Notes: generated from the sequence alone by a model not told the origin. 64,000 nucleotides of DNA from Anaerolineales bacterium (GCA_020060625.1 JAGUZU010000087.1:8500-72499); one strand, 5' to 3'. Positions 9,755-51,955 are shown, numbered from the stretch's first letter. Made by a program: numbers and translations.

Positions 9755-11121
9755 CACGCATACGCGCCGGACCAGGTCTCGAAGCGCCGCCCATCGTGTT
9801 CTTCCGGCGTGTAGAACGTGAGGTAGGTGAGCGCCTGGTACGGCACGAACTTTTGTTCCCTGGGGTTTTGAATGGCGAGGTCGTAATAGGAATGCCACGT
9901 GCCTGCGTTGAAATAGACCTGGCTTTCGGGGTTTGAGGCTGCAAAGGTCATTCCCAGCGGCACCACTTCGTAATGATGCGTATGCCCGTACACGATGTGC
10001 TGGGCTTTGCCGTTGAGGTAAAACGGCTCTTTCAACGCATAATTGGCGAAAGAATGTTTTCCGCCCCACATCTTCTTGCGCACCCAGATGACGACATCGT
10101 TGATGGTCGAGAAGGAGGCGCGCCCTGAGATCTTCACGATCAGTTCCATCGCGTCCACCACATCGAAGCGGAAGGCTTTATCCGCTTCGCGCACGAAATC
10201 CATTTGCAGAAATTCATCGGCGATCTCGTCCCAAACCTGCTTCAACTCATCCTCCAGCGGATGCTCGCCGGCGTAGTGGCGGATCTGTCCGCTGATCCAC
10301 AACGGCGCCGCCAGCACCGGGCGGATGTTGGCGATCTTGCGCAAACTGTCTATGATGCCGGAGGGCAGCAGGTCGCCGTACCGTTTTTGCACTTCCACCG
10401 GAAAGCGGTTGCAGACGTCCATGGTGAAGGCGTCGCCGACCGTGCCGTGGTCGCGTCCCTTTTCCTTATCGAAGTTGAACTTGTCGTACATGTCGCCGTG
10501 CCGCGCAAAGACTTTATGACGCTCGAACAACTCTTGCAGGAGCGGGGATTCATCCGCTTCATACGGGAACGGGGAGGCTGGGTTGCTCAACCCCATCCTT
10601 TGAATCATCTCGAGGCGGATTCTGTCGAAGGCTTCGCCTTTGAGGTGGTAATACCAATCGTGGTTGCCCACCATGTAATGGATGCGTACTTTGAGCGGAA
10701 TCTGCTCTGCGGTTTGGAAATCGGGCTTGCCGTCGCGGGTGGCGGGCGCGAGTTGAATCTTTTCTCCGCTGGCGAGGCGGCGCAGGATGTCCATGGCTTC
10801 CTGATTTTCATCGAGGATCGCGCGTGTGACTTCGAGAAGCTTGGGCGCATAATGCGGATTGGACGGATCGGACCAGGGTCGGATGTAGTTGGAATCTCCG
10901 GGGGTGGTATCCAGCCAGCGGGTGGAGTGAAGCGGGTCGAGGACGTCGCCCATCAGGAGGACATCGAGGTTTTCGATGGGGCGGTATTTTCCGTCCTTGC
11001 GAACGGATGCGAAGCGGGCGGTTTCGGTGAGGCGGCGCGCGAACAGCCGAAACGCGCTGGCGGAAATTGAATCGGCGGTGGTTCCGTCTCCAAGGTGAAG
11101 GTCGCTGACGATGACTAACAT
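9754..11121 (-). CDS. Calcineurin-like metallophosphoesterase (455 aa)
   Basis: VSDLHLGDG, LLMGDVLD, MVGNHDWY, VYGHTHH motifs in canonical order. Confidence 0.85.
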   Translation of the reverse strand: MLVIVSDLHLGDGTTADSISASAFRLFARRLTETARFASVRKDGKYRPIENLDVLLMGDVLDPLHSTRWLDTTPGDSNYIRPWSDPSNPHYAPKLLEVTRAILDENQEAMDILRRLASGEKIQLAPATRDGKPDFQTAEQIPLKVRIHYMVGNHDWYYHLKGEAFDRIRLEMIQRMGLSNPASPFPYEADESPLLQELFERHKVFARHGDMYDKFNFDKEKGRDHGTVGDAFTMDVCNRFPVEVQKRYGDLLPSGIIDSLRKIANIRPVLAAPLWISGQIRHYAGEHPLEDELKQVWDEIADEFLQMDFVREADKAFRFDVVDAMELIVKISGRASFSTINDVVIWVRKKMWGGKHSFANYALKEPFYLNGKAQHIVYGHTHHYEVVPLGMTFAASNPESQVYFNAGTWHSYYDLAIQNPREQKFVPYQALTYLTFYTPEEHDGRRFETWSGAYA

Positions 11122-11174
11122 GATTTCTCCTCGGCGTGAATTATAGCGCGATTGACTTGGCTGACCGCATGTTT

Positions 11175-11298
11175 GTTGGATGATAAGGAAAAGCCTTGTG
11201 GTGAGCGAAGCCGAACCATCCTCCCCGGGCAGGATTTCGACATTCCCTTCGGTCGCAACCTACCAGATTGGGAATTGGAAATCCGCGAAGCGGTATAA
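11175..11298 (+). pseudogene. Internal fragment of a TIR-domain gene (codons equivalent to WLDKEK...LLPGQDWELEIREAV), interrupted by short insertions
   Basis: Nucleotide and peptide similarity to 14752-14815 of the full-length TIR gene and to 12113-12212. No start codon of its own. Ends in TAA inside GGTATAAT. Confidence 0.7.
11194..11220 (+). repeat. 27-nt insert CCTTGTGGTGAGCGAAGCCGAACCATC inside TIR fragment (copy 1 of 2)
   Basis: Same insert at the same codon position in the fragment at 12135-12161 (2 mismatches). Absent from the full-length gene. Confidence 0.75.
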
Positions 11299-11304
11299 TT
11301 GTCA
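11292..11304 (+). promoter_or_regulatory. Conserved cassette left end GGTATAATTGTCA (contains a -10-like TATAAT)
   Basis: Identical 13-mer at 13090-13102, in both cases at the junction between a TIR fragment and the first cargo gene. Confidence 0.4.
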
Positions 11305-11322
11305 TTGTTCAGGAGAAAGACA

Positions 11323-11541
11323 ATGACTGTTTATCCACATCCATACACAAAAAAAATTTCCCAGGAAATCGAAAAGACACCAGATGAGTATTTGCCCGCC
11401 TTATTGGAAATGATTCGCCTGTTCCGTGAGACCGTGACACTTAAACCCGCCGACGAAAGTTTTGCGCAGGGCTGGAAAGAGGCGATGAACAACGAATTGC
11501 TCCCGCTCGATCAACTTTGGGAAGGGATAGATGCCCGATAG
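11323..11541 (+). CDS. Small hypothetical protein (72 aa), antitoxin-like, first gene of the hicBA cassette
   Basis: ATG at 11323 preceded by AGGAGA. No family recognised. Confidence 0.5.
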   Translation: MTVYPHPYTKKISQEIEKTPDEYLPALLEMIRLFRETVTLKPADESFAQGWKEAMNNELLPLDQLWEGIDAR

Positions 11542-11565
11542 CCTAAAGTGAAAAGAGGCAGTTTT

Positions 11566-11763
11566 ATGAAATACAAAATCCGACTCGAAGAAACAGACGA
11601 GGGCTTTGCCGTTTGGGTTCCTGGCTTGCCAGGTTGCTGGTCGCAGGGAGAGACGGAAGAGGAAGCCATCGAAAACATCAAGGACGCGATCAAAACATAT
11701 CTCGAAACCATTGAAATCTTGAACCAGAATGAGGAAACCCGCATTGTGGAGGTTCCAGTTTAA
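11566..11763 (+). CDS. hicB: HicB-family antitoxin
   Basis: MKYKIRLEETDEGFAVWVPGLPGCWSQGETEEEAIENIKDAI is the UPF0150/HicB N-terminal signature. Listed ORF starts at 11548. Confidence 0.8.
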   Translation: MKYKIRLEETDEGFAVWVPGLPGCWSQGETEEEAIENIKDAIKTYLETIEILNQNEETRIVEVPV

Positions 11764-11765
11764 TC

Positions 11766-11978
11766 ATGCCCAAATTGGCGGGAATTCCACACCAGCGGGC
11801 GGTAAAAGCATTCGAGAAAGCGGGGTTTCGCGTCATCCGCGAAGGGAAACATATCTCGATGGCAAAAGATGATCGTATTATCATCATCCCGCGCAATAAC
11901 CCGATCAACGCCTTCACCATGGGCGGAATTATCAAGGACGCGGGGTTGACCATCGACGAGTTCAAGAAATTGTTGTAA
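11766..11978 (+). CDS. hicA: HicA-family mRNA interferase toxin
   Basis: KAFEKAGFRVIREGKHISM...IIPRNNPI...IIKDAGLTIDEFKKLL matches the YcfA/HicA pattern. Starts 2 nt after hicB. Confidence 0.8.
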   Translation: MPKLAGIPHQRAVKAFEKAGFRVIREGKHISMAKDDRIIIIPRNNPINAFTMGGIIKDAGLTIDEFKKLL

Positions 11979-11980
11979 CT

Positions 11981-12212
11981 ATGACAACAGATAAACGCCC
12001 CCTCAAAGTCTTCCTGTGCCATATTATCCCCTTGTGGGACGCCCACGCGGACCGTGACGCCGTCCGCGCACTGCCGTAGGACGCGCCTGACGGACGATGG
12101 CGTGGACCGCTTCGCGTGGCTGGACAAAGAGAAACCTTGTGGTGAGCGCAGTCGAACCATCCCCGGCGCGGACTGGGAATTGGAAATCAAAAAAGCCGTG
12201 CGCGAAAAGTGA
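11981..12212 (+). pseudogene. Decayed 5' part of a TIR-domain gene (MTTDKRPLKVFLCH ... WLDKEK ... DWELEIKKAVRE)
   Basis: Own ATG. A roughly 18-nt insertion after CH, a premature TAG, a frame change and the 27-nt insert. Collinear with codons 1 to about 65 of the full-length gene. Confidence 0.75.
12135..12161 (+). repeat. 27-nt insert CCTTGTGGTGAGCGCAGTCGAACCATC inside TIR fragment (copy 2 of 2)
   Basis: See 11194-11220. Confidence 0.75.
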
Positions 12213-12225
12213 GTATAATAAAACC

Positions 12226-12489
12226 ATGACCACTTATACGCGAAAACGCCCCACGTACAAAACGGCTTTGGAACTGGCTCGCCAATTATCTCTGCGGGAC
12301 CAGCGGCGTTTGCGCGCGGAACTGGCAAGATTGTCTTCAACCAGATTCGTGCGTCCGTCCCGTGATCCCAAGGTCAGGCGTTCTGCGCTTCTGCTTGCAA
12401 ACGAGATACGAAAAACAGTGCAGTCTGCCACGGCAAAACAATCGCTTGATGATGGGATGCGCCAATTGCGGGGACGTTCATGGTCGTGA
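12226..12489 (+). CDS. Putative antitoxin (87 aa, basic) partnered with the following PIN gene
   Basis: ATG at 12226. 10-nt overlap with the PIN gene. No family recognised. The listed ORF 12097 start runs through the TIR fragment. Confidence 0.5.
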   Translation: MTTYTRKRPTYKTALELARQLSLRDQRRLRAELARLSSTRFVRPSRDPKVRRSALLLANEIRKTVQSATAKQSLDDGMRQLRGRSWS

Positions 12490-12935
12490 TCGACTCGGAT
12501 GTATTGCTTCTGGCTTTTGCATACCCCAACGATGACCGCCAGAGTGTAAATTTGAAATTTCTTGAAGCCGTTCAAACTGCCCAGCCTGCCACCACGATCT
12601 ACAACGTGATGGAAGTCCTTGGGCAGTTGTCTTTTAATCTTTCGGAAGAACAATTGGAAGGCTGGCAGGATTGGCTTGTCAATGCCTACAATCTGACCGT
12701 TATCTGGGACGCCGACTCAAAAGAGAAAATTGACCCTGAAACGTGGCGCGAAATCATTTACGAGCGTCCATTTCAGAAAATGCGAAGTGCCCGCATGGCG
12801 TTCATGGATGCCTTGATTATTTCGGCTACGGAATATGCTCCAGATGTGGATTGTTTCGTGACGTGGAATGCCAAACACTTCAAAGGAAAAACGGATTTAA
12901 CGGTTTTGACCCCCGAAGAATATTTGGCAAGATAG
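12480..12935 (+). CDS. PIN-domain ribonuclease toxin (VapC-like)
   Basis: Acidic quartet candidates VIDSDVLL, NVMEVL, FMDALI, TWNAKHF. Confidence 0.7.
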   Translation: MVVIDSDVLLLAFAYPNDDRQSVNLKFLEAVQTAQPATTIYNVMEVLGQLSFNLSEEQLEGWQDWLVNAYNLTVIWDADSKEKIDPETWREIIYERPFQKMRSARMAFMDALIISATEYAPDVDCFVTWNAKHFKGKTDLTVLTPEEYLAR

Positions 12936-12963
12936 TTTTCATTACCACCAAAACGGGACGGAT

Positions 12964-13074
12964 ATGACCGAGACCAAGCGACCTCTGAAAGTATTTTTAT
13001 GCCACGCCCACGCGGACCGGGACGCCGTCCGCGCACTATACACGCGCCTGACGGACGATGGCGTGGACGCATAA
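12964..13074 (+). pseudogene. 36-codon 5' stub of a TIR-domain gene (MTETKRPLKVFLCHAHADRDAVRALYTRLTDDGVDA-stop)
   Basis: About 87 percent identical by eye to the stub at 13840-13950, including about 14 nt upstream (AAAACGGGACGGAT). Stop codon sits where the intact gene continues with TGG. Confidence 0.8.
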
Positions 13075-13089
13075 CCCCATAATTTGGGC

Positions 13090-13102
13090 GGTATAATTGT
13101 CA
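13090..13102 (+). promoter_or_regulatory. Conserved cassette left end GGTATAATTGTCA (second copy)
   Basis: Identical to 11292-11304. 11 nt upstream of the PIN gene ATG. Confidence 0.4.
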
Positions 13103-13113
13103 CTGGAATTCAA

Positions 13114-13557
13114 ATGACCAAAATCTATCTCGATACATGCTGTCTTAATCGCCCATTCGATGACCAAACTCAAGAGAGGATTCGTCTTGAGGCGGAAGCA
13201 GTATTGGCAATTCTGTCTCGAATTGAAAAAGGTGACTGGGATTGGGTTGGAAGCGATGTATTGACTGACGAGATCGAACAGACGCCAGACACTCAAAAAT
13301 TAAGCCGCTCAAAATTGCTGTCAGGTTTCATTGATGAAAATGTGGAGATCGGCGAAAAAGAAATCAAGCGAGCGGCAGAATTACAGAAAGCAGGCTTTCA
13401 AATCTTCGATGCCTTGCATCTTGCCTCTGCTGAAAGCGCAAACGCGGACGTTTTTCTTTCGACCGATGACCGCCTGTTGAAACTGGCGAAACGAATATCG
13501 AAACGATTGAAAATACGAGTAATGAACCCTCTTGCCTGGGTAGAGGAGATGATCTGA
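13114..13557 (+). CDS. PIN-domain toxin
   Basis: IYLDTCCLNRPFDD, FDALHLASAE, FLSTDDRL motifs. ATG at 13114 (listed ORF from 13084). Confidence 0.7.
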   Translation: MTKIYLDTCCLNRPFDDQTQERIRLEAEAVLAILSRIEKGDWDWVGSDVLTDEIEQTPDTQKLSRSKLLSGFIDENVEIGEKEIKRAAELQKAGFQIFDALHLASAESANADVFLSTDDRLLKLAKRISKRLKIRVMNPLAWVEEMI

Positions 13558-13778
13558 TGAATGCACAAACAATGTCTCTTGAACAAATCCGCATCGCTGG
13601 CATGGAAGCGCTGGCGCGTGAACTTGGTATTGTGGGTATGGTGCGCTTCCTCCAGCAATTTGAAACGGGACACGGCGACTACTCCAAAGATCGCCACAAA
13701 TGGCTCGACGACCAAGACTTGGATACCATTGTCAAGCGGATTCAAGAGAAAAGGGAAACCAACAAGAAAGCGAAATAA
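13557..13778 (+). CDS. Putative antitoxin (73 aa) overlapping the PIN gene stop (TGATGA)
   Basis: Start overlaps upstream stop. Small helical protein (LEQIRIAGMEALARELGIVGMVRFLQQFETGHGDYSKDR). Family not identified with certainty. Confidence 0.55.
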   Translation: MNAQTMSLEQIRIAGMEALARELGIVGMVRFLQQFETGHGDYSKDRHKWLDDQDLDTIVKRIQEKRETNKKAK

Positions 13779-13839
13779 CCTGAAACGGCGCGTTCCTTGT
13801 GGTGGCGCGTCGTTTTTCATTCACTAAAACGGGACGGAT

Positions 13840-13950
13840 ATGACCGAAGCCAAGCGACCATTGAAGGTATTTTTATGCCATGCCCACGCGGACCGGGACG
13901 CCGTCCGCGCACTGTACACGCGGCTGACAAACGATGATATGGACGCGTGA
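13840..13950 (+). pseudogene. 36-codon 5' stub of a TIR-domain gene (MTEAKRPLKVFLCHAHADRDAVRALYTRLTNDDMDA-stop)
   Basis: Direct repeat of 12964-13074. Breaks at exactly the same codon. Confidence 0.8.
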
Positions 13951-13965
13951 CAAAAAGGCGGAATT

Positions 13966-14583
13966 ATGAATTGGGCAGATGAAAACCAGGAGTGGAAAAG
14001 ACAGCAGGAACAAAAGGTAAAGACAAAAGAATCGCGAGAAAAATTTAAAGCAGCTTCTGGCAATACTGCTGAATGGAATCGCGTATACAAAAATTATCTT
14101 TCTTCTCAAATCTGGCGAGAAATAAAGAGAAGGAAATTCAAACAAGTGGGGTATAAATGTGAAAGATGTGGAGCCGAATATATTAATGAGGCTGGATTGC
14201 AAGTTCATCATCTAAACTATGATCGCGTAGGTGGGCTTGAAAGGGATGGCGATCTTCAAATTGTTTGTGCAGGGGAATGTCACGAAGACGCCGATGAAGA
14301 ACGGGTTGAATCTGAGAGAAGATACGCAGAATATGAGCGTTGGTTTGAAAATTGGGGTACAAAAGTATATAAAGATGAGTGGGCAATGAAGAAATATGAT
14401 GATGAAATGCAAATGCGTGAAGAGTTTTGTGAATACGCCTATAAAATATGGTGTAAAAAGAACAACAAGGCTTATCGGTCTTATTTGAAAATCCCTGATG
14501 AATTTGTTGAATTGCTGGAGAGTGGCTTGTATGATGAATACGAAGAAGAATCTTATGATGACGATTTTTCTTGGTATAGGTAA
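13966..14583 (+). CDS. HNH-endonuclease-like protein with acidic C-terminal tail
   Basis: YLSSQIWREIKRRKF..CERCG...LQVHHLNYDRVGGLERDGDLQIVCAGECH is the phage-type HNH layout (CxxC ... HH ... CxxCH). Visibly AT-rich. Confidence 0.65.
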   Translation: MNWADENQEWKRQQEQKVKTKESREKFKAASGNTAEWNRVYKNYLSSQIWREIKRRKFKQVGYKCERCGAEYINEAGLQVHHLNYDRVGGLERDGDLQIVCAGECHEDADEERVESERRYAEYERWFENWGTKVYKDEWAMKKYDDEMQMREEFCEYAYKIWCKKNNKAYRSYLKIPDEFVELLESGLYDEYEEESYDDDFSWYR

Positions 14584-14644
14584 TCAACTAGAAAACTTCT
14601 TTTCAGTTGTATAATTTCGTTACTCCTTAGCGGGAAACCTCCCT

Positions 14645-15825
14645 ATGCCCGAACCCAAGCGCCCCCCCTCAAAGTCTTTCTCTGCCACGCACACAGCGAC
14701 AAAAATGCAGTGCGCTCTTTATATTCGCGTCTTAAGCGGGAAGGTGTTGACGCCTGGCTTGATAAGGAAAAGCTTCTTCCAGGTGCAGATTGGGAATATG
14801 AAATTCGCAAGGCTGTACGTGAAGCAGATGTAGTGGTGGTTTGCCTCTCAAAGCAGTTCAACCAAGCGGGGTTTCGACAGAAAGAAGTACGCCTTGCCCT
14901 TGATACCGCCATGGAAAAACCCGAAGGCGAGATTTTTATCATCCCTGCGCGCTTGGAGGAATGTGACAATCTCGAAAGCCTGAGAAAATGGCATTGGGTG
15001 GATTTATTTGAATCAGACGGTTATCAAAGCCTTGCGAGTACATTGAAAGCGCAGGCAGAGAAAGTCGGTGTAACCTTACAGATGAAACGTTCCAGAAAAT
15101 CGAAACCTATTGTGCAACTGCAGAAGAAACAGGGCATTTCAGAAAAAGCGATTTCATCAAGTGGCGTGGGGATTGGTGATGGAGTGTCTGAAAGTGTAAT
15201 TGTTACAGGTCATGGAAACGTTATCAATTTTGGCAATTCTGTGAGTTTTCCACCTTCCGAGAAACCAGAACAAGGCTCTGTTAAAACGAACTTGCATATT
15301 CAGTGGGTACCAACGGATGAATTGTATGATGGAAAGCCATACATAAGTATTGACATAACAAACAGGGAAAATCGCCTTGTCAGATGTCGTTGCTATATCA
15401 AGTCTTTGGGGCTAAACGGAATTACCCGTGACGACATAAAGCACGAAATTGTAAAGCATACAAATCGAGTTTCGTGGTCAGGTGGTTCAGATGAGGAAGT
15501 AGGAATTAAACATATTGATCCAAGGGGCTTCGGGAGAATAAATTTGGCGTCTTTGGACTCCCAAGATTTTATTCGGCGTCCTTTGCAGTTTGAAACCGCA
15601 AAGGGTGCTCAATTCAAAGACAAAGATGGTAGATACTTACCGTTTGGGAGATACATGGTTGAACTTGGATTGGCTTGTAGCGCTGATGGGAGAGATTTTA
15701 CGGAGATACCCATCAAGATAGGATTTGAATATATTGAGGAAAGAGTTCCCTTTGAGGATGATAGAATAAAAAACGGAATAACGATAAATAGAGTATTACG
15801 TCTTTTGGAAATAAAGCCAAAATAA
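14645..15825 (+). CDS. TIR-domain protein with uncharacterised beta-rich C-terminal domain. Reading frame broken in a C7 tract (14662-14668)
   Basis: ATG 14645 (MPEPKRPP) is in frame 2. The TIR core PLKVFLCHAHSDKNAVRSLYSRLKREGVDAWLDKEKLLPGADWEYEIRKAVREADVVVVCLSKQ...FRQKEVRLAL is in frame 1. The ORF track therefore splits it into 14645..14833 and 14710..15825. All fragment copies carry C5 at this position. Confidence 0.75.
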
Positions 15826-15852
15826 TTTGGTGAGACGATAAATCAGTAAAGC

Positions 15853-15933
15853 ATGGATACTAACAAACGCCCCCTCAAAGTCTTCTGCCACGCCCACGCG
15901 GACAAGCCGAAGGTGATGGAACTCCAGCTTTGA
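15853..15933 (+). pseudogene. 26-codon stub of a TIR gene 5' end (MDTNKRPLKVF-CHAHADKPK...)
   Basis: 21-nt identity AAACGCCCCCTCAAAGTCTTC with the fragment at 11991. One codon deleted, then diverges. Confidence 0.65.
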
Positions 15934-16006
15934 ACCGCAACTCAGATGGAGAATGGACTCAACCCCATTCTCCATCTTCCATTACCCATCAGTTATAATC
16001 CCCCCG

Positions 16007-16046
16007 CAACTTCAAACTGAATACTGACCACTGGTTACTCAAAACT
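16007..16046 (+). repeat. Heptamer array (nnACTnn) x6 forming the leader of the orphan glyQS 5' copy
   Basis: caacttc aaactga atactga ccactgg ttactca aaactat: strict 7-nt phasing of ACT, running into the ATG at 16047. Confidence 0.7.
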
Positions 16047-16108
16047 ATGCCTTCCTCTTTCCAATCCATCATCCTCAACCTCCAAGACTTCTGGGCATCG
16101 CACGGATG
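16047..16108 (+). pseudogene. Orphan 5' end of glyQS ([20 protein letters not shown])
   Basis: Collinear with 16904-16975 of the intact glyQS ([22 protein letters not shown]). Homology stops at CACGGATG, 2 nt before the vapC stop codon. Confidence 0.85.
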
Positions 16109-16110
16109 GG

Positions 16111-16515
16111 TTACATCGCTCTTAACAGATCAATGAATTCGCGCGCAGTGATGATGGGGATTTCTCTGAACGAGCTGATTTCCAGCAGGTGATTATCCCC
16201 GCTGACAACGTAATTTACTTTCCCAGCCACTGCCGCTTCGAGAAATTTATTATCTGTGGGGTCAGCCACGATGACAAGAATTTCCTCTTCTGGCGTAACG
16301 AACTCGGCGATTCGCAAAAGATAATCGGTGGCGGCAATAATTTCGCTTTTCGGGATTTTGAATTTTGGGCGATTGATAACATCCAGATATTCATGTGCAA
16401 CCGCTTCTGTCACAATCAGTTTGAATTTCCCCGCTTTCCATTCGTCAATGATTACGCCCAATCTTCCGCCCAACGTGGCGGAAATAAAAATATTTGTATC
16501 CAAAACCACGCGCAT
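16111..16515 (-). CDS. vapC: PIN-domain toxin VapC
   Basis: VVLDTNIFISA, TEAVAHEY, VADPTDNKFLEAAV, VSGDNHLL motifs. AT-rich. Confidence 0.8.
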   Translation of the reverse strand: MRVVLDTNIFISATLGGRLGVIIDEWKAGKFKLIVTEAVAHEYLDVINRPKFKIPKSEIIAATDYLLRIAEFVTPEEEILVIVADPTDNKFLEAAVAGKVNYVVSGDNHLLEISSFREIPIITAREFIDLLRAM

Positions 16516-16748
16516 TATTTGCCGTCCCGTACCGCGCGGATTTCGGCCTCTATGTCTTCATCGGTAATGTTCATTTCTTGCGCCCGCGCGCGTATGGATT
16601 TCAAGGCTTTATCGAAGCGTTCTTCCAGTTCTTTTTCTTCGGTTGGAATGCTTAATTTTAAGTAGCGAATAAAAGCCAGCACGTCTGCATAACGGGTTTC
16701 TGGCAACGTGGAAATTTCAAGCATGATGGTTTGTTCTAAATTGGTCAT
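16515..16748 (-). CDS. Antitoxin partner of VapC (77 aa)
   Basis: Stop overlaps the vapC start by 1 nt. Small acidic helical protein. Confidence 0.6.
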   Translation of the reverse strand: MTNLEQTIMLEISTLPETRYADVLAFIRYLKLSIPTEEKELEERFDKALKSIRARAQEMNITDEDIEAEIRAVRDGK

Positions 16749-16852
16749 GTTTCACCTCGTTAAAATTATTATACCTGCAATAAATGCCCTCGAAACAGAA
16801 CCAATTTCCACCGTCGCGTGAAACGCAAATCTTCCATCACCTTTCCATCAGT

Positions 16853-16858
16853 TATAAT
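16853..16858 (+). promoter_or_regulatory. -10 hexamer TATAAT of glyQS (duplicate copy at 15994-15999)
   Basis: CATCAGTTATAATCCC block conserved in both glyQS upstream copies, about 45 nt before each ATG. Confidence 0.45.
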
Positions 16859-16861
16859 CCC

Positions 16862-16903
16862 ATCCGTAATCCAAAATCGTAAATCTGAAATCGAAAATCC
16901 TAC
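16862..16903 (+). repeat. Heptamer array (ATCnnnA) x6 forming the whole glyQS leader
   Basis: atccgta atccaaa atcgtaa atctgaa atcgaaa atcctac then ATG. Exactly 42 nt, no Shine-Dalgarno motif. Confidence 0.75.
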
Positions 16904-19900
16904 ATGACACAAAAAGCCTCTTTCCAATCCATCATCCTCAAACTACAAGACTTCTGGGCATCGCACGGATGCCTGATCACACAGCCCTACTACACCCAGG
17001 TTGGCGCAGGGACGATGAACCCTGCCACCTTCCTGCGCGTGCTCGGACCCGAACCGTGGAACGTCGCCTACGTCGAGCCGTCTGTCCGTCCCGATGACGG
17101 GCGTTACGGCGAGAACCCCAACCGCTTCCAACTCCACACTCAATTTCAGGTCATCCTCAAGCCCGACCCCGGAAACCCGCAGGAACTCTATCTCGAGTCG
17201 CTCAAAGCCCTCGGCATCGACCCGCGCCAGCACGACATCCGCTTCGTGGAAGATAACTGGGAGCAACCCGCCATCTCCGCCTGGGGCTTGGGCTGGGAGG
17301 TCTGGCTCGACGGACAGGAGATCACGCAGTTCACCTACTTCCAGCAGATGGGCGGCGTGACGCTCGACCCCGTCTCGGTTGAGATCACCTACGGTCTCGA
17401 ACGCATCCTCATCGCGCTCAACAACGCCAAAGCCATCTGGAACGAAGAGTTCGGCGCAGGCGTCACCTATGGCGAGATCCGCCGTCAGGAAGAGTTCGAA
17501 CACTCCAAATATTATTTTGAAACCGCCGACATTGACCGCGTCCGCGCCATGTACGATCTCTTCTCCGCCGAAGCCGACGCCTGTCTCGCCGCCGGTCTCA
17601 TCGTCCCCGCGCACGACTACGTCCTCAAATGCTCGCACTCCTTCAACATCCTCGACACTCGCGGAGCCATCTCCGTCGCCGAACGTCAAGCCTTCTTCCG
17701 CCGCATCCGCGAACTCGCAAGGGGAGTGGCGCTCGCGTATGAAGAGCAGAGGAAGAATCTTGAGTATCCGCTATTGAAAGAAAAGGGAATAGTGAATAGT
17801 GAATTGGGCAAGGCATCCCTTCCTATTCCCCATTCCCCATTACCTTTCTTGCTTGAAATCGGTGTCGAAGAACTTCCAGCAGACGACGTCAATACCGCCT
17901 ACGCAGCCTTATCTGCCCGTGTGCCGACTCTTCTCAAGGAACTGAATCTCACTCATGGCGACGTCCGCATCTTCACAACCCCGAGGCGGATTGTCGTTTC
18001 AGTAGCCTCTCTCTCCCCGAATCAGCCTGACCGCGAAGACCTTGTCAAAGGTCCCCCCGCCGACAAAGCCATTGTAGGACAAGGCTCTGCCTTGTCCACC
18101 CCCGCCGAAGACGTAAGTCGGATTGCCAATCCGACCTACACTCAGGCGGCGATTGGCTTCGCCAAAAAGAACGGCATCAACGTCGAAGACCTGCAAGTCC
18201 GCGAAGAAGGCAATAACAAATACGTCTTCGCCCTCGTCAAGCAGACTGGACGCCCCACGCCCGAAGTCCTCGCCGAAGCATTGCCCAAGTTGGTGGCGGA
18301 TATCAAGTTCGAGAAGTCCATGCGCTGGAACGACTCCGGCGTCTCCTTCTCGCGTCCCATCCGCTGGTATGTGGCTCTGCTCGGTGACATGGTCATCCCG
18401 TTCGAATATGCTGGCGTCGTTTCTGGCAACGTCTCTCGCGGACTCCGCCCCTACGACTCGCCAGAGATCAAAATCACATCCGCCGACAAATACTTCGACA
18501 TCATCCGCGAAGCGGGCATCATTCTCGATAAAGAAGAACGCAAAGCCGCCATCGTGGAGCAAGTCAAACAAGCCGCGGCGCTGGTCGGCGGGGAAGCCAT
18601 CATCGAAGACGGTTTATTAAACGAAGTCACCAACCTCATCGAATTGCCCACCGCCGTTATGGGTGGATTCAACGAAGAATTCCTTTCATTGCCGCGCGAT
18701 GTGTTGATCTCGGTGATGAAGAAACACCAACGCTATTTTCCAGTTCAAAGTTCAAAGTCGAAGGTTGCAGGTTCGTCTGACCTTCAATTTTCAACCTTCA
18801 ACCTTTTACCCAATTTTATAGCCATCCGCAACGGCGACGACATGCACATCGACACCGTCCGCGAAGGAAACGAACACGTCCTCGGCGCGCGCTTTGCGGA
18901 TGCGAACTTTTTCGTCCGTGAAGATGTGAAACTCAAGCTCGAAGAATATCGCCCGAAACTTGCTTCGCTGACCTTCCACACCAAGCTCGGCTCCATGCTC
19001 GATAAATCCGACCGCATGTTGAAACTCGGCGCGGAAATCGGCGCAATGCTGGGTTACAAGAAGGATGACGTGACCGGCATCAAAAACCTTGCGCGCGCGG
19101 TCTATCTCTCCAAAGCCGATTTGGTCACGCAGATGGTCACCGAAATGACGTCCCTGCAAGGCATCATCGGCGGAGAATATGCCTTGCGAAGCGGCGAAGA
19201 CCCCGAAGTGGCGCAGGCGATTGCCGAACAGTATCAAACCGTGCCGGGATCGAAGATCGGTCTCGCGCTTGCGCTGACAGACAGGCTTGACTCCCTCATC
19301 GGTCTTTTCGCGGCGGGACTCGCTCCCACCGGCGCGAAAGACCCGTTCGGTCTGCGCCGTGCCGCGATTGGAGTCGTCCAGCCGCTCATCGAACATGACG
19401 TGGACTTCGATCTTGCGGAAGCGATCAAGAAATCCGCCATGACTCAACCCATTGAAGTCAGCGATGAAGCGCAGGCAAAAATTCTGGAATTTATCGCGGG
19501 GCGTCTGTCTGTGGTGTTGAAAGATGCAGGCTACAAACATGACGTCGTCGAAGCCGTGCTGGCGGCGTGGCGCCGCGGCGCCGCTAACCCGGCGGCGTCT
19601 GCCCGGGCGGTGAAGCAGTTGTCGGCTTGGGTCGGAGGCGAAGACTGGCGCGAAATCCTGCCTGCGTTCGCGCGTTGTGTCCGCATCACCCGCGATCAAA
19701 AACAGACGTTCAAAGTGAACGAGAATGCCTTTGTCGAAAAAGAGGAAAAGGATTTATTCAAGGCGTTGGAGAAGGCGGAAAAGTCCAAACGCGCCGAAGG
19801 CTCGGTGGATGATTTCCTGAATGCTTTCGTGCCGATGATTCCCGCTGTCAACGCCTTCTTCGACAAAGTGCTGGTGATGGCGGAGGATGTAAAGGTCAAA

Positions 19901-19981
19901 GAGAACCGGCTTGGCTTGTTGCAGCGCATCGCCGCGCTCGCAAGCGGCATTGCCGACCTGAGCAAACTCGAAGGGTTCTAA
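16904..19981 (+). CDS. glyQS: Glycine--tRNA ligase, fused alpha and beta subunits
   Basis: N-terminal GlyQ ([17 protein letters not shown]...YFQQMGG...) through about residue 290, a linker, then GlyS ([13 protein letters not shown] ... [10 protein letters not shown] ... [11 protein letters not shown] ...). Single 1025-aa ORF. Confidence 0.92.
17786..17848 (+). repeat. 63-nt heptamer array (9 x 7 nt = 21 codons) forming the GlyQ-GlyS linker
   Basis: ggaatag tgaatag tgaattg ggcaagg catccct tcctatt ccccatt ccccatt acctttc. Left units (GAATnGT) and right units (CCnATTC) are roughly complementary. Confidence 0.65.
18743..18805 (+). repeat. 63-nt heptamer array (9 x 7 nt) in frame inside the GlyS part
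   Basis: gttcaaa gttcaaa gtcgaag gttgcag gttcgtc tgacctt caatttt caacctt caacctt. Encodes [21 protein letters not shown] between the conserved QRYFP and LPNFI motifs. Confidence 0.65.
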
Positions 19982-31942: not shown

Positions 31943-32450
31943 TCCCATTATCGAACTTTCGAGAGGGCTGGGCGAAACGCTTCGTTCGTTCCTGTTCGAG
32001 AAGACCGTAACCTATCAATATCCCGAAGAGAAGCGGCCCGTCCGCCCGCGTTTTCGCGGACGTCACGTGTTGAAGCGTTACGACAATGGCTTGGAAAAGT
32101 GCATCGGATGCTCGCTATGCGCCGCCGCCTGCCCCGCGGATGCGATCTTCGTGGAAGCCTCGGAAAACACCGATGAAAAACGCTTCTCACCCGGAGAGCG
32201 GTATGCCTCCACCTACGAGATCAACATGCTCCGCTGTATCTATTGCGGCTTTTGCGAGGATGCCTGCCCGACGGAGGCGATTGTGCTGGGCGATAACTAC
32301 GAACTATCCTTCACCGACCGCAAACAGGCGATCTACACCAAGGATTTGTTGTTGGAGCCTGTCCCGTCCGAGCAGATGCTCACGCCGCGCAAGGTGGAGC
32401 CGCGCGCGTTCACACGATCCGTGCCGGAGATGAAAGACCCTACGGACTGA
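31929..32450 (+). CDS. nuoI: NADH-quinone oxidoreductase subunit I
   Basis: Two 4Fe-4S ferredoxin motifs [12 protein letters not shown] and [12 protein letters not shown]. Confidence 0.92.
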
Positions 32451-32506
32451 CGATTTACGATTTCAGATTTTCGATTGTTCCGCGCATCGTCAGTCGAAAA
32501 TCGTAA
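32451..32506 (+). repeat. Heptamer array / long imperfect hairpin in the nuoI-nuoJ spacer
   Basis: cgattta cgatttc agatttt cgattgt tccgcgc atcgtca gtcgaaa atcgtaa. ATTTACGATTT pairs perfectly with AAATCGTAAAT. Confidence 0.75.
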
Positions 32507-33041: not shown

Positions 33042-33343
33042 TGGTCCCCGTTGATTATTACATTGCCTTATCCGCGATCCTATTTGTCATCGGCTCGCTC
33101 GGTGTGCTTTCGCGCCGTAACCCGCTCATCATCTTCATGTCCATCGAGTTGATGCTCAATGCGGCGAACCTCGCCTTCGTGGCATTTGCCAGAATGTACG
33201 ATAGTTTCAGCGGACAGATCTTCGTCTTCTTCGTCATCGCGGTTGCGGCGGCAGAGGTGGCGGTGGGGCTTGCGCTGATTGTGGAAATTTTCAAAACCCG
33301 CAAGAACATCAATGTGGATGAGATGAATTCTCTAAAAGGATAA
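33041..33343 (+). CDS. nuoK: NADH-quinone oxidoreductase subunit K
   Basis: 100-aa three-TM protein, [26 protein letters not shown]. Confidence 0.9.
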
Positions 33344-33344
33344 T

Positions 33345-33386
33345 TCGATATTCGATGCTCGATGATCGAATATCGAGTATCGAATT
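33345..33386 (+). repeat. Heptamer array in the nuoK-nuoL spacer
   Basis: tcgatat tcgatgc tcgatga tcgaata tcgagta tcgaatt. The ends AATTCGATATTCGAT / ATCGAATATCGA..ATCGAATT are inverted repeats. Confidence 0.75.
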
Positions 33387-33398
33387 ACGGAGAATGTT

Positions 33399-50859: not shown

Positions 50860-50894
50860 GCGAAACGCAAAACGTAAAACGCGAAACGCAAAGC
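50860..50894 (+). repeat. Heptamer array immediately upstream of the TolB-like gene
   Basis: gcgaaac gcaaaac gtaaaac gcgaaac gcaaagc then AA-ATG. Confidence 0.75.
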
Positions 50895-50896
50895 AA

Positions 50897-51955
50897 ATGC
50901 CCTCCCGAGCGCTCACATGGATCGAATCCCTTCTGCTTGCCGGTCTGGGGGTTGGCTTCCTTGCGCTTTGCCTGTTGGTCGGTTACGCCGTCATCGTCGT
51001 TGCCAGCGAACCATTGGAATCACCCACGCCCACACCGGATCCGCCTCCTGCCGCCACCGCCGCTGTTGAGACCTTGATCCTCCCCACCGACCTTGCCACG
51101 CTTCCTCCGACCTTCGACCTGCCCACTCCGACCGAATTTATTCCCACGCCCCAGCCGACCTACAACGACTCCCCGCCGCCTGTTGGAAAAATCGCCTTCA
51201 CCTGCTACGTCCAGCAGATTGACCAGATCTGCCTGCTCAACGCGGACGGCAGCGGGCGCAAACAGTTGACCAGTCTCAAAGCCACCGCGTTCTATCCCTC
51301 CGTTTCACCCGATGGCGAAACCGTCTACTTCTCCTCGCGCGAGGGCGGCAATTTTGAAATCTACTCCATTGACGGCAACGGGGATAATCTGACGAAACTG
51401 ACGAATGCCATCGGCGCGCTCTACGCCCCCGAACTCTCCCCGGACGGCGAGTGGATCGTCTTCACCAAGCACGGAGACGGTCTCTGGAAAATGCGCCCCG
51501 ACGGATCGGGTATCCAACGCATCACGAACAAGGACGACATTGACCCCGCGTGGTCGCCCGACGGTTCGATGATCTCTTTTGCGTCCTCACGGGCGGGCGC
51601 GCGCCAACTCTTCATCATGAACGCGGACGGCTCAAATGTTCAGCAGGTCACTGACCTGACGAACATGGGCGGACGCAACACCTGGTCGCCGGACGGCGCG
51701 AAACTGGCTTTTTATCGAGGTCCGCAGGGCGACCGGAACATCTACGTCATCAACCTGGACGGCACGGGTCTGGTCAAACTCACGAACGGCGGCGACAACC
51801 TCGCCCCGTCCTGGTCGCCCGACGGCAATTGGATCGCGTTCACATCCTTTCGGGACGGGAATAACGAAATCTACATGATGCACCCCGACGGCACCGGCGT
51901 GACCCGCCTGACGAACAGTCCCATTTCGGATTGGCAGCCGAGGTGGGGGAGGTAG
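50897..51955 (+). CDS. Membrane-anchored TolB-like beta-propeller (PD40/WD40-like repeats)
   Basis: N-terminal TM, Pro/Thr linker, then repeated SPDG motifs (VSPDGETVYFSS, LSPDGEWIVFTK, WSPDGSMISFAS, WSPDGAKLAFYR, WSPDGNWIAFTS). Confidence 0.8.
   Translation: MPSRALTWIESLLLAGLGVGFLALCLLVGYAVIVVASEPLESPTPTPDPPPAATAAVETLILPTDLATLPPTFDLPTPTEFIPTPQPTYNDSPPPVGKIAFTCYVQQIDQICLLNADGSGRKQLTSLKATAFYPSVSPDGETVYFSSREGGNFEIYSIDGNGDNLTKLTNAIGALYAPELSPDGEWIVFTKHGDGLWKMRPDGSGIQRITNKDDIDPAWSPDGSMISFASSRAGARQLFIMNADGSNVQQVTDLTNMGGRNTWSPDGAKLAFYRGPQGDRNIYVINLDGTGLVKLTNGGDNLAPSWSPDGNWIAFTSFRDGNNEIYMMHPDGTGVTRLTNSPISDWQPRWGR

Follow-up and report, generated by a model that had tools for sequence, protein, structure and literature searches.

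The stretch of DNA analysed here, called the window in the following, comprises 64,000 nucleotides (nt) of an Anaerolineales bacterium (GCA_020060625.1, JAGUZU010000087.1:8500-72499) and contains glyQS, the gene of a fused glycyl-tRNA synthetase, with the housekeeping genes recO upstream and dnaG and rpoD downstream. Directly before glyQS, a vapBC toxin-antitoxin (TA) pair on the minus strand is flanked by two collinear copies of the glyQS 5' end (15974-16108 and 16832-16971, 863 nt apart), each of which consists of the glyQS promoter with a -10 box, a leader of heptamer repeats and the first 18-22 codons. The downstream copy belongs to the complete gene, whereas the upstream copy, the orphan, is truncated. 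The features of the locus are:

15853 to 15933, plus strand: TIR-gene 5' fragment 4, 26 codons, starting with MDTNKRPLKVFCHAHADKPKV (tblastn match to the TIR N-terminus)
15946 to 15975, plus strand: hairpin ATGGAGAATGG-ACTCAACC-CCATTCTCCAT upstream of the orphan promoter (read from the sequence)
15974 to 16004, plus strand: orphan glyQS promoter, -10 box at 15994-15999 (exact 17-nt repeat, found family-wide before glyQS)
16005 to 16046, plus strand: orphan leader, six NNNNACT heptamers (read from the sequence)
16047 to 16108, plus strand: coding fragment of the orphan, 20 protein letters (matches 16917-16971 over 55 nt with 96% identity; tblastn)
16111 to 16515, minus strand: vapC, PIN_3 toxin of 134 amino acids (aa) (Pfam PF13470, 2.5e-20, whole profile covered)
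16515 to 16748, minus strand: putative vapB antitoxin, 77 aa, overlapping vapC by 1 nt
16749 to 16781, minus strand: Shine-Dalgarno sequence and -10 box of vapBC (TATAAT at 16768-16773, ATTGCAGGTATAAT; sequence conservation)
16782 to 16831, no strand assigned: X-down element AAATGCCCTCGAAACAGAACC...CGTCGCGTGAAACGCAAATC, separating the vapBC -10 box from the glyQS promoter (alignment)
16832 to 16863, plus strand: working glyQS promoter, -10 box at 16853-16858 (repeat and family conservation)
16864 to 16903, plus strand: working leader, six NNNAAAT heptamers (Tandem Repeats Finder, TRF), the sixth of which reaches 16905 over the first two bases of the ATG
16904 to 19981, plus strand: glyQS, fused alpha and beta glycyl-tRNA synthetase of 1025 aa (Pfam tRNA-synt_2e, 2.4e-130; tRNA_synt_2f, 1.2e-179)

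The duplicated glyQS 5' end and the vapBC pair

The promoter block CCATCAGTTATAATCCC is present in both copies as the same 17 nt (15986-16002 and 16845-16861) and is preceded by ATCTTCCAT in each of them. Its core ATCAGTTATAATC occurs at only two places in the 64 kilobases (kb), namely in the two glyQS copies, with a chance expectation of 0.03, and a dispersed generic promoter repeat is thereby ruled out. In the coding block (16054-16108 and 16917-16971), 53 of 55 positions are identical (96%). The 42-nt leaders between these blocks each consist of six 7-nt units, which are of the NNNNACT type in the upstream copy (16005-16046: CGCAACT, TCAAACT, GAATACT, GACCACT, GGTTACT, CAAAACT) and of the NNNAAAT type in the downstream copy (16864-16905: CCGTAAT, CCAAAAT, CGTAAAT, CTGAAAT, CGAAAAT, CCTACAT; also detected by TRF). 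The two leader sequences are unrelated and have the 7-nt periodicity alone in common.

The homology of the copies stops at 16108, 2 nt before the vapC stop codon (16111-16113), and the orphan open reading frame (ORF) of 29 codons (16047-16136) extends antisense into the 3' end of vapC. The guanine plus cytosine (GC) content of the insert is 39-48%, compared to 58-62% in glyQS. All this agrees with the initial annotation of the stretch, which was made from the sequence alone and had located three collinear blocks at these positions, read the upstream copy as an orphan ORF of 29 codons ending 2 nt from the vapC stop codon, followed the downstream copy into glyQS and described an AT-rich vapBC cargo between a truncated and a complete glyQS 5' end.

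For comparison we used 80 loci of GlyQS relatives (L001-L080, one genome per species) from Anaerolineales and Candidatus Villigracilis-like Chloroflexota, 71 of which include at least 1.5 kb of upstream sequence; loci with higher numbers lie outside this set. The nearest relatives in this one-genome-per-species collection show about 80% nucleotide identity over glyQS. The ACT-type leader is the only glyQS leader in L017, L041, L068, L072, L032 and others, and nearly the same working leader as in the window, together with the MTQKAS start, is found in L001 and L051. Since each leader type is found elsewhere as the sole leader of glyQS, the copies represent different alleles and not the result of a duplication in situ; a copy from another lineage was one of the two options given in the initial annotation. 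Among the species, promoter context, leader and start codons form a mosaic.

Heptamer leaders of the flavours AAATCNN, NNNNACT, CCAATYY and CGAATAN stand directly before start codons and are found in the window at 16005-16046, 16864-16905, 32448-32478, 33343-33394 and 50860-50897. They have no obvious Shine-Dalgarno sequence, are predicted to be unstructured and are found at the glyQS genes of nearly all relatives, where the type varies by species. Similar heptamers are also present inside glyQS, at the alpha/beta junction (17784-17841) and in an insertion of the beta part (18742-18805), and both sites show the lowest identity and most of the insertions and deletions in comparison to L081, a further locus described below. 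The linker between alpha and beta may be a former intergenic leader that is now read through. The region 10500-17500 gave no match to a T-box or any other Rfam element at E <= 1, and a T-box leader as in Bacillus is rejected for a leader of about 45 nt that is unstructured and made up of heptamer repeats.

The vapBC module itself is ordinary, very abundant and present in multiple copies in the phylum. Its toxin exceeds the cutoff of TIGR00305 (2.4e-14; 53.6 bits, cutoff 29.15). At E <= 1e-10 it has 616 homologs, of which the 120 listed show 75-91% identity. The 77-aa partner gene precedes the VapC homolog in all contexts fetched; the putative antitoxin has no match in Pfam or NCBIfam, and the arrangement of ATTGCAGGTATAAT...AACGAGGTGA..ATG before vapB is kept in the window, L081, L088, L090, L099, L101 and L102. 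A PIN toxin behind a small overlapping gene, an own promoter and a low GC content are also the properties of type II VapBC systems (PIN_3 / TIGR00305). In other contexts (L100-L102), vapBC units end with ...AACAGCGTAACCG, followed by a 3' untranslated region (UTR) with a terminator. The junction in the window lies directly after this TAACC, so that the native 3' UTR of vapBC is gone. Without this 3' UTR and terminator, the module faces the orphan glyQS promoter head-on.

In 25 other loci, most of which lack vapBC, the 50-nt X-down element immediately precedes the glyQS promoter; it is also homologous to the region upstream of vapBC units in contexts other than glyQS (L099, L101, L102). At the exact point where the -10 region of vapBC starts in the window, L041, L012, L016, L046 and L053 have, in place of vapBC, a conserved segment that contains two hairpins (AGTCCGCTTTGAGCGGACT...CCTGACGTTCCACGTCGGGG...) and is located about 70 nt upstream of X-down.

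On the other side of the insert, the orphan promoter is preceded by a hairpin, and the same hairpin context is found before the sole glyQS promoter in L001, L005, L030, L036, L045, L050, L051 and L067. Just before the glyQS promoter, some species have this 30-nt hairpin (ATGGAGAATGG...CCATTCTCCAT) and others do not; it separates X-down from the promoter in L032 and L053 and thus behaves as a small insertion. Further upstream, the TIR fragment at 15853-15933 has a matching remnant to the left of the orphan in L090, and it is what is left of a TIR gene that formerly preceded the glyQS promoter.

Orphan fragments and TIR arrays in related species

The structure of the window is also present in at least three other assemblies. 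L081, a metagenome-assembled genome from NCBI that was reached via a VapC with 90% identity, is collinear with the window over 15992-19981 and has, in the same order, the orphan promoter, an ACT-type leader, the orphan coding block, vapC, vapB, the same spacer, promoter, leader and glyQS. Per 100 nt, its identity to the window is 82-93% (mostly 88-93%) in vapBC and mostly 83-92% in the alpha part of glyQS. L090, from a metagenome of the Joint Genome Institute (JGI), and L091, from a Logan assembly, share the structure and have TIR genes beyond the orphan. In L099, the junction of orphan and vapC is nearly identical to that in the window, but vapB has a TIR fragment and a PIN cassette on its other side. 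Since the structure is common to the window, L081, L090/L091 and L099, the event is older than the split of several lineages; an old event was the other option given in the initial annotation. The orphan has been eroding since then, as judged from its different lengths: it comprises 35 codons in L081, 29 in L090 and about 18-20 in the window and L099, and its 3' end in the window is about 50 nt shorter than in L081.

Over 56 nt of the coding block, orphan and working copy of the same genome agree at 52, 56 and 54 positions, whereas copies from different genomes agree at only 48-51 of the 56. The higher similarity within than between genomes indicates gene conversion between the two coding blocks. 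The orphan leader is of the ACT type in the window and L081, and of the AAAT type in L090 and L099. Since the orphans of the window and L090 have the same hairpin, promoter and upstream remnant but different leader types, an allele replacement of the leader is indicated. At four-fold degenerate sites, the identity between the window and its relatives is mostly 0.75-0.95 in codons 0-300 of glyQS, which adjoin the island, in contrast to about 0.5 past codon 450. This part of the gene either has undergone repeated exchange between lineages or is under nucleotide-level constraint, and it offers an unusually good homology anchor either way. The contrast at silent sites separates the first 300 codons (16904-17800) from the last 575 (18250-19981).

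Ten of the 80 related species have an orphan copy of the glyQS 5' end at a distance of 0.9-4.4 kb before the gene (L013, L015, L018, L022, L043, L049, L054, L066, L073 and L074), which corresponds to 14% of those with enough upstream sequence. Each of these orphans has its own TATAAT box and a leader type unlike that of the working copy in the same genome. Their homology ends 50-152 nt beyond the SFQ codon and varies among events, falling into three groups, and no orphan extends beyond about 51 codons or is longer than about 250 nt. The working glyQS of L018 and L043 lacks a separate -10 box, and its transcription must come from a cassette or orphan promoter. Including the PIN_3 vapBC of the window, about nine kinds of cargo separate orphan and working copy, the others being:

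L015: ParE-like pair
L018 and L043: nucleotidyltransferase pair
L049: DUF433 and DUF5615 pair
L022: two TIR-FGE-sulfatase genes
L074: FGE-sulfatase
L013: WD40 protein
L054 and L066: PocR/AraC regulator and a large protein
L073: SpoIIE phosphatase

Of the 71 species whose upstream sequence reaches 1.5 kb or more, about 60 have an uninterrupted locus, and not a single relative carries the duplicated block without cargo, which the initial annotation had named as the pattern expected from a simple tandem duplication. The recurrent scars probably mark a hot spot for the one-sided addition of foreign DNA without replacement.

The same architecture is found next door in the window, as the initial annotation had noticed, where 5' fragments of a TIR gene alternate with small cassettes:

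11182 to 15825, plus strand: array of TIR 5' fragments and cassettes
11182 to 11290, 11982 to 12210, 12964 to 13074 and 13840 to 13950, plus strand: TIR 5' fragments, with a further one at 15853
11323 to 11978: cassette with RelN-like, HicB and HicA proteins
12226 to 12935: cassette with an 87-aa protein and a PIN-like protein of 151 aa
13084 to 13778: cassette with a PIN protein and a 73-aa protein
13966 to 14583: cassette with an HNH protein
14645 to 15825: full TIR_2 gene at the end of the array

TIR genes or fragments upstream of glyQS were found in 56 of the 80 species (70%), always on the glyQS strand and with up to seven fragments within 10 kb. The fragments end between codons 16 and 66, with very few longer ones, and the longest of the type found in the window reach codons 82-89. 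The cassettes are very compact, extending from about 10 nt before the GGTATAAT box to the stop codon, and reappear in the arrays of other species at about 80% identity. The window has cassette B and one extra fragment between cassettes A and C, where L041 has a single fragment, and from this difference it seems that one cassette and one fragment are gained per step. In L007, L041, L018 and L017, the fragment nearest to the full TIR gene is also the most similar to it, but this age gradient fails in the window, L013, L014, L016 and L030. The full TIR gene of the window is only 62-67% identical to the fragments and is itself followed by a sequence of the fragment type (15853-15933); this gene is therefore cargo, too.

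Several further observations concern these arrays. A similar one lies beside a TIR-FGE-sulfatase gene at another locus (L082-L085). The full TIR gene of the window, starting at 14645, has seven C at 14664-14670 where the fragments have five; its codons 1-6 are out of frame and the tblastn match resumes at 14665, so that the gene may be a pseudogene, contain a sequencing error or possess a slippage-prone switch. A 28-nt insert, CCTTGTGGTGAGCGMAGYCGAACCATCC, interrupts two fragments (11194-11221 and 12135-12162) at the same TIR codon (after DKEK) and breaks the frame; it is also present in L014 and L018. Another insert of about 20 nt, ATTATCCCCTTGTGGGACGC, follows the CH codons in TIR fragments of the window (12024-12043), L040, L045 and L082, in either orientation and at times double (GTCCCACAAGGGGATGATA in L082). 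Finally, the HNH-motif protein of 205 aa (13966-14583) shows weak matches to ZorE (2.9e-08) and to the HNH region of IscB (1e-06) and has neither a partner gene nor relatives in the 80 loci.

Probable homology-anchored addition and alternative explanations

The probable origin of the locus is homology-anchored additive recombination, in which the partners would have been diverged alleles of a variable TIR/TA island beside the highly conserved glyQS. One end of the incoming DNA would have recombined by homology and the other end would have been joined illegitimately, or a circular piece might have entered by a single crossover. DNA from another lineage would thus have been added and none exchanged, leaving the truncated orphan (15974-16108) beyond vapBC, while the complete glyQS would have retained a promoter and stayed functional. 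Afterwards, the structure could have been inherited in several lineages or moved between them as a block by homologous recombination. The later erosion of the orphan 3' end, a swap of the leader in some lineages and gene conversion keeping the coding blocks alike would account for the present state. As to why the stretch with vapBC has been kept, we infer that the addictive pair kills those cells that lose it: recombinants that delete or replace the resident TA pair, or loop it out between the 55-nt repeats, would be killed by the remaining toxin. The survivors would then be additive outcomes with a junction just outside of the operon, pressed to its promoter or its stop codon.

Which part of the locus was resident and which was imported is a separate question. 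The assumption that vapBC and X-down were resident beside glyQS and that the orphan is the ragged right end of an imported upstream island is slightly favoured. The X-down element aligns to the upstream regions of vapBC units and is linked to glyQS in 25 loci, so that the combination of vapBC and glyQS looks old, resident and often lost. The end of the imported island would have had too little glyQS homology, up to about 250 nt, to complete a homologous exchange, and the size limit of the orphans of about 250 nt is what one would expect for the ends of imported fragments with too short a terminal homology.

Several points weigh against this proposal. Of the nine cargos, five are genes other than TA pairs, and TA addiction as a barrier to replacement is a role that we infer. 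Many cassettes of the TIR arrays abut a TIR fragment that ends at codons 56-63 beside a TATAAT box, with the junction motif ...GTGCGCGAR AGTG(AC)G TATAAT. Random illegitimate joints alone do not give such clustered junctions, and later erosion together with selection, or a site preference, may be needed. Moreover, the synonymous conservation in the alpha part of glyQS is fairly uniform between pairs, and this could reflect nucleotide constraint instead of gene flow. A same-species genome that could represent the donor or the recipient was found neither in the genome collection nor in two metagenome scans, of which the one with the orphan-specific leader gave no match and the one with the vapB/X-down junction gave 7 matches, all of them unrelated and due to chance. 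The architecture alone cannot decide the direction.

The initial annotation had assumed the opposite direction, with vapBC and a replacement 5' end placed inside the 5' end of glyQS. Its architectural part stands, but its direction is not established, given the homology of X-down to vapBC upstream regions and its presence at 25 glyQS loci. According to this explanation, vapBC, X-down, promoter, leader and the first codons were imported by homology on the right and an illegitimate joint on the left; the orphan would be the resident promoter and 5' end, and the gene would today depend on imported 5' sequence. The architecture fits this exactly, the hairpin context of the orphan is a common native context of the glyQS promoter, a natural donor would be available in a locus with vapBC, X-down and glyQS in this arrangement, and the strongly conserved 5' part of glyQS would be a good anchor. 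However, the working leader and the MTQKAS start as in L001 and L051 point to a resident 5' end at the working copy, although leaders are exchangeable. Furthermore, a joint inside an essential gene is required, and the limit of about 250 nt for the orphans lacks a mechanism, unless there is selection against longer truncated proteins or repeats. The alignment with the upstream regions of relatives, which the initial annotation had proposed for finding the ancestral copy, revealed that each of the two promoter contexts and each of the two leader types is native in some species and that the modules are mosaic, so that the ancestral copy is undecidable in this way. Altogether, we regard an import of the working 5' end as possible, though on the unlikely side. 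It is clearly less probable that recombination between orphan and working copy frees a circle of vapBC with one glyQS 5' copy, which enters again by a Campbell-type crossover, recreates the same junctions and leaves the promoter and leader of the recipient on the orphan. This would explain why the same cassette with nearly the same junctions is combined with ACT-type (window, L081) as well as AAAT-type (L090, L099) orphan leaders; gene conversion indicates that the direct repeats are recombinationally active, and cassettes of the TIR arrays are gained or lost singly with one fragment each. Yet, the same data are compatible with vertical descent in which the leader underwent allele replacement, neither a circle nor an empty site was observed, the repeats are short (55 nt of high identity), the loss of vapBC should be toxic, and the first formation still requires an illegitimate event.

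Site-specific integration into an att site in the 5' end of glyQS and in the TIR gene, by a remote recombinase and with restoration of the 5' end as for SXT at prfC, would account for the sharp and compact borders of the cassettes, for the clustering of junctions at TIR codons 56-63 beside TATAAT in many cassette types and for the three groups of orphans. We nevertheless judge it very unlikely. No integrase or transposase was found within about 10 kb upstream or 7 kb downstream (ORFs at 11121-16900 and the flanking genes were scanned), the cargo is as small as 0.7 kb without mobility genes, and the endpoints of separate events lie up to 100 nt apart and are unequal even within clusters. There is no short identical core or constant junction across events; instead, the duplicates are diverged alleles of 130-250 nt. 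An integron or attC array in particular is rejected, since the repeat units fold no better than shuffled sequences on either strand (z-scores from -1.55 to +1.49), no inverted repeats flanking the cassette were found and an integrase is absent from the region scanned. Finally, a local tandem duplication of the glyQS 5' region with a later insertion of vapBC, or an artefact of assembly, is hardly credible. The 96% identity of the coding blocks would fit a duplication, but it is accounted for by gene conversion and the general conservation of this block, whereas the leaders are unrelated and of two allelic types and no relative has the duplicate without cargo. An artefact is at odds with the occurrence of the structure in four independent assemblies (NCBI, JGI, Logan).

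Beyond the preferred explanation of homology-anchored addition, TIR arrays and glyQS orphans might be two aspects of one cassette-accretion system that works without an integrase. TA operons would serve as barriers, every exchange of islands would end additively, and the 5' fragments of the anchor gene would act as boundaries and as portable homology for looping single cassettes out and in, giving, by nothing but general recombination and TA addiction, an ordered, co-oriented and integron-like array kept throughout a family of Chloroflexota. This wider idea is speculative, and as a whole we think it rather improbable.

Relation to known systems and significance

The closest counterpart are the arrays of orphan immunity genes in the type VI secretion system (T6SS) loci of Vibrio cholerae, which have been attributed to homology-facilitated illegitimate recombination (Kirchberger et al. 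2017, PMC5361080), and the same idea has been applied to the orphan toxin/immunity arrays of Rhs and CdiA, as cited in PMC5361080. Common to both cases are a variable module beside a conserved anchor, additions instead of exchanges, ordered leftovers, the absence of a specific site or dedicated recombinase, and the proposal of one homologous and one illegitimate end. Here, too, truncated copies of the anchor lie beside the modules (glyQS in 10 of 80 species, TIR in 56 of 80) and the alleles come from different lineages. In contrast to the T6SS arrays, the leftovers are 5' fragments of the downstream anchor and therefore the mirror image of displaced 3' tips, and the part of the anchor is played by a TIR gene and by an essential housekeeping gene, in Chloroflexota. 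The cargo is also different, since it mostly consists of TA pairs, which are addictive, instead of effector/immunity pairs, which are protective. A literature search on TIR or TA arrays in Anaerolineae returned nothing relevant.

The SXT element reportedly supplies a new promoter and N-terminal codons to prfC. As in that case, foreign DNA is located in the 5' end of a conserved translation gene that is functional via a second 5' end. SXT, however, possesses a tyrosine integrase, short and nearly identical attP and attB sites, constant junctions, transfer genes and a size of about 100 kb, whereas the glyQS locus has no integrase, variable endpoints, diverged duplicates of 130-250 nt and cargos of 0.7-4 kb. 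Elements of the SXT/R391 family of integrative conjugative elements sit in the prfC 5' end (PMC2791158), and a report on the TA module mosAT describes it as stabilising the SXT mobile element (PMC2654960).

With the TA arrays of integrons, the TIR arrays share small, ordered and co-oriented TA cassettes with a repeated unit in between. They differ in that there is neither IntI nor attI/attC nor a folded site, the repeat is a protein-gene fragment of variable length and each cassette has a -10 box. TA cassettes are present in chromosomal integron arrays, and by analogy the TA modules are plausibly found beside glyQS because they would resist deletion. Another parallel is the transformation of Streptococcus pneumoniae with a cassette that inactivates an essential gene, which yields merodiploids (Johnston et al. 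2013, PMC3784515). In both cases, an intact copy of the essential gene lies beside incoming DNA that would have disrupted it, and the pneumococcal experiments show that partial homology can lead to a duplication instead of a replacement. The pneumococcal duplications, however, are 100-900 kb in size, bordered by insertion sequence repeats, unstable and the result of interchromatid crossing-over, whereas the duplication described here comprises about 130 nt and is evolutionarily stable.

The scars of 5' fragments and the family-wide arrays are thus a variant of the known orphan-array phenomenon in which the scars are frequent and ordered. If the proposed explanation is true, they are a natural record of foreign DNA being added beside an essential gene without the enzyme of a mobile element, and TA pairs would have a concrete genomic role in blocking replacement and forcing accretion. 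Since the scars are frequent (14%, with arrays in 70% of the 80 species), fragment lengths, junctions and gene conversion could be used to measure the rules of one-sided recombination, and such a measurement would cover an uncultured phylum. For annotation pipelines, this would mean that short 5' gene fragments beside TA pairs in these genomes are recombination scars and not genes.

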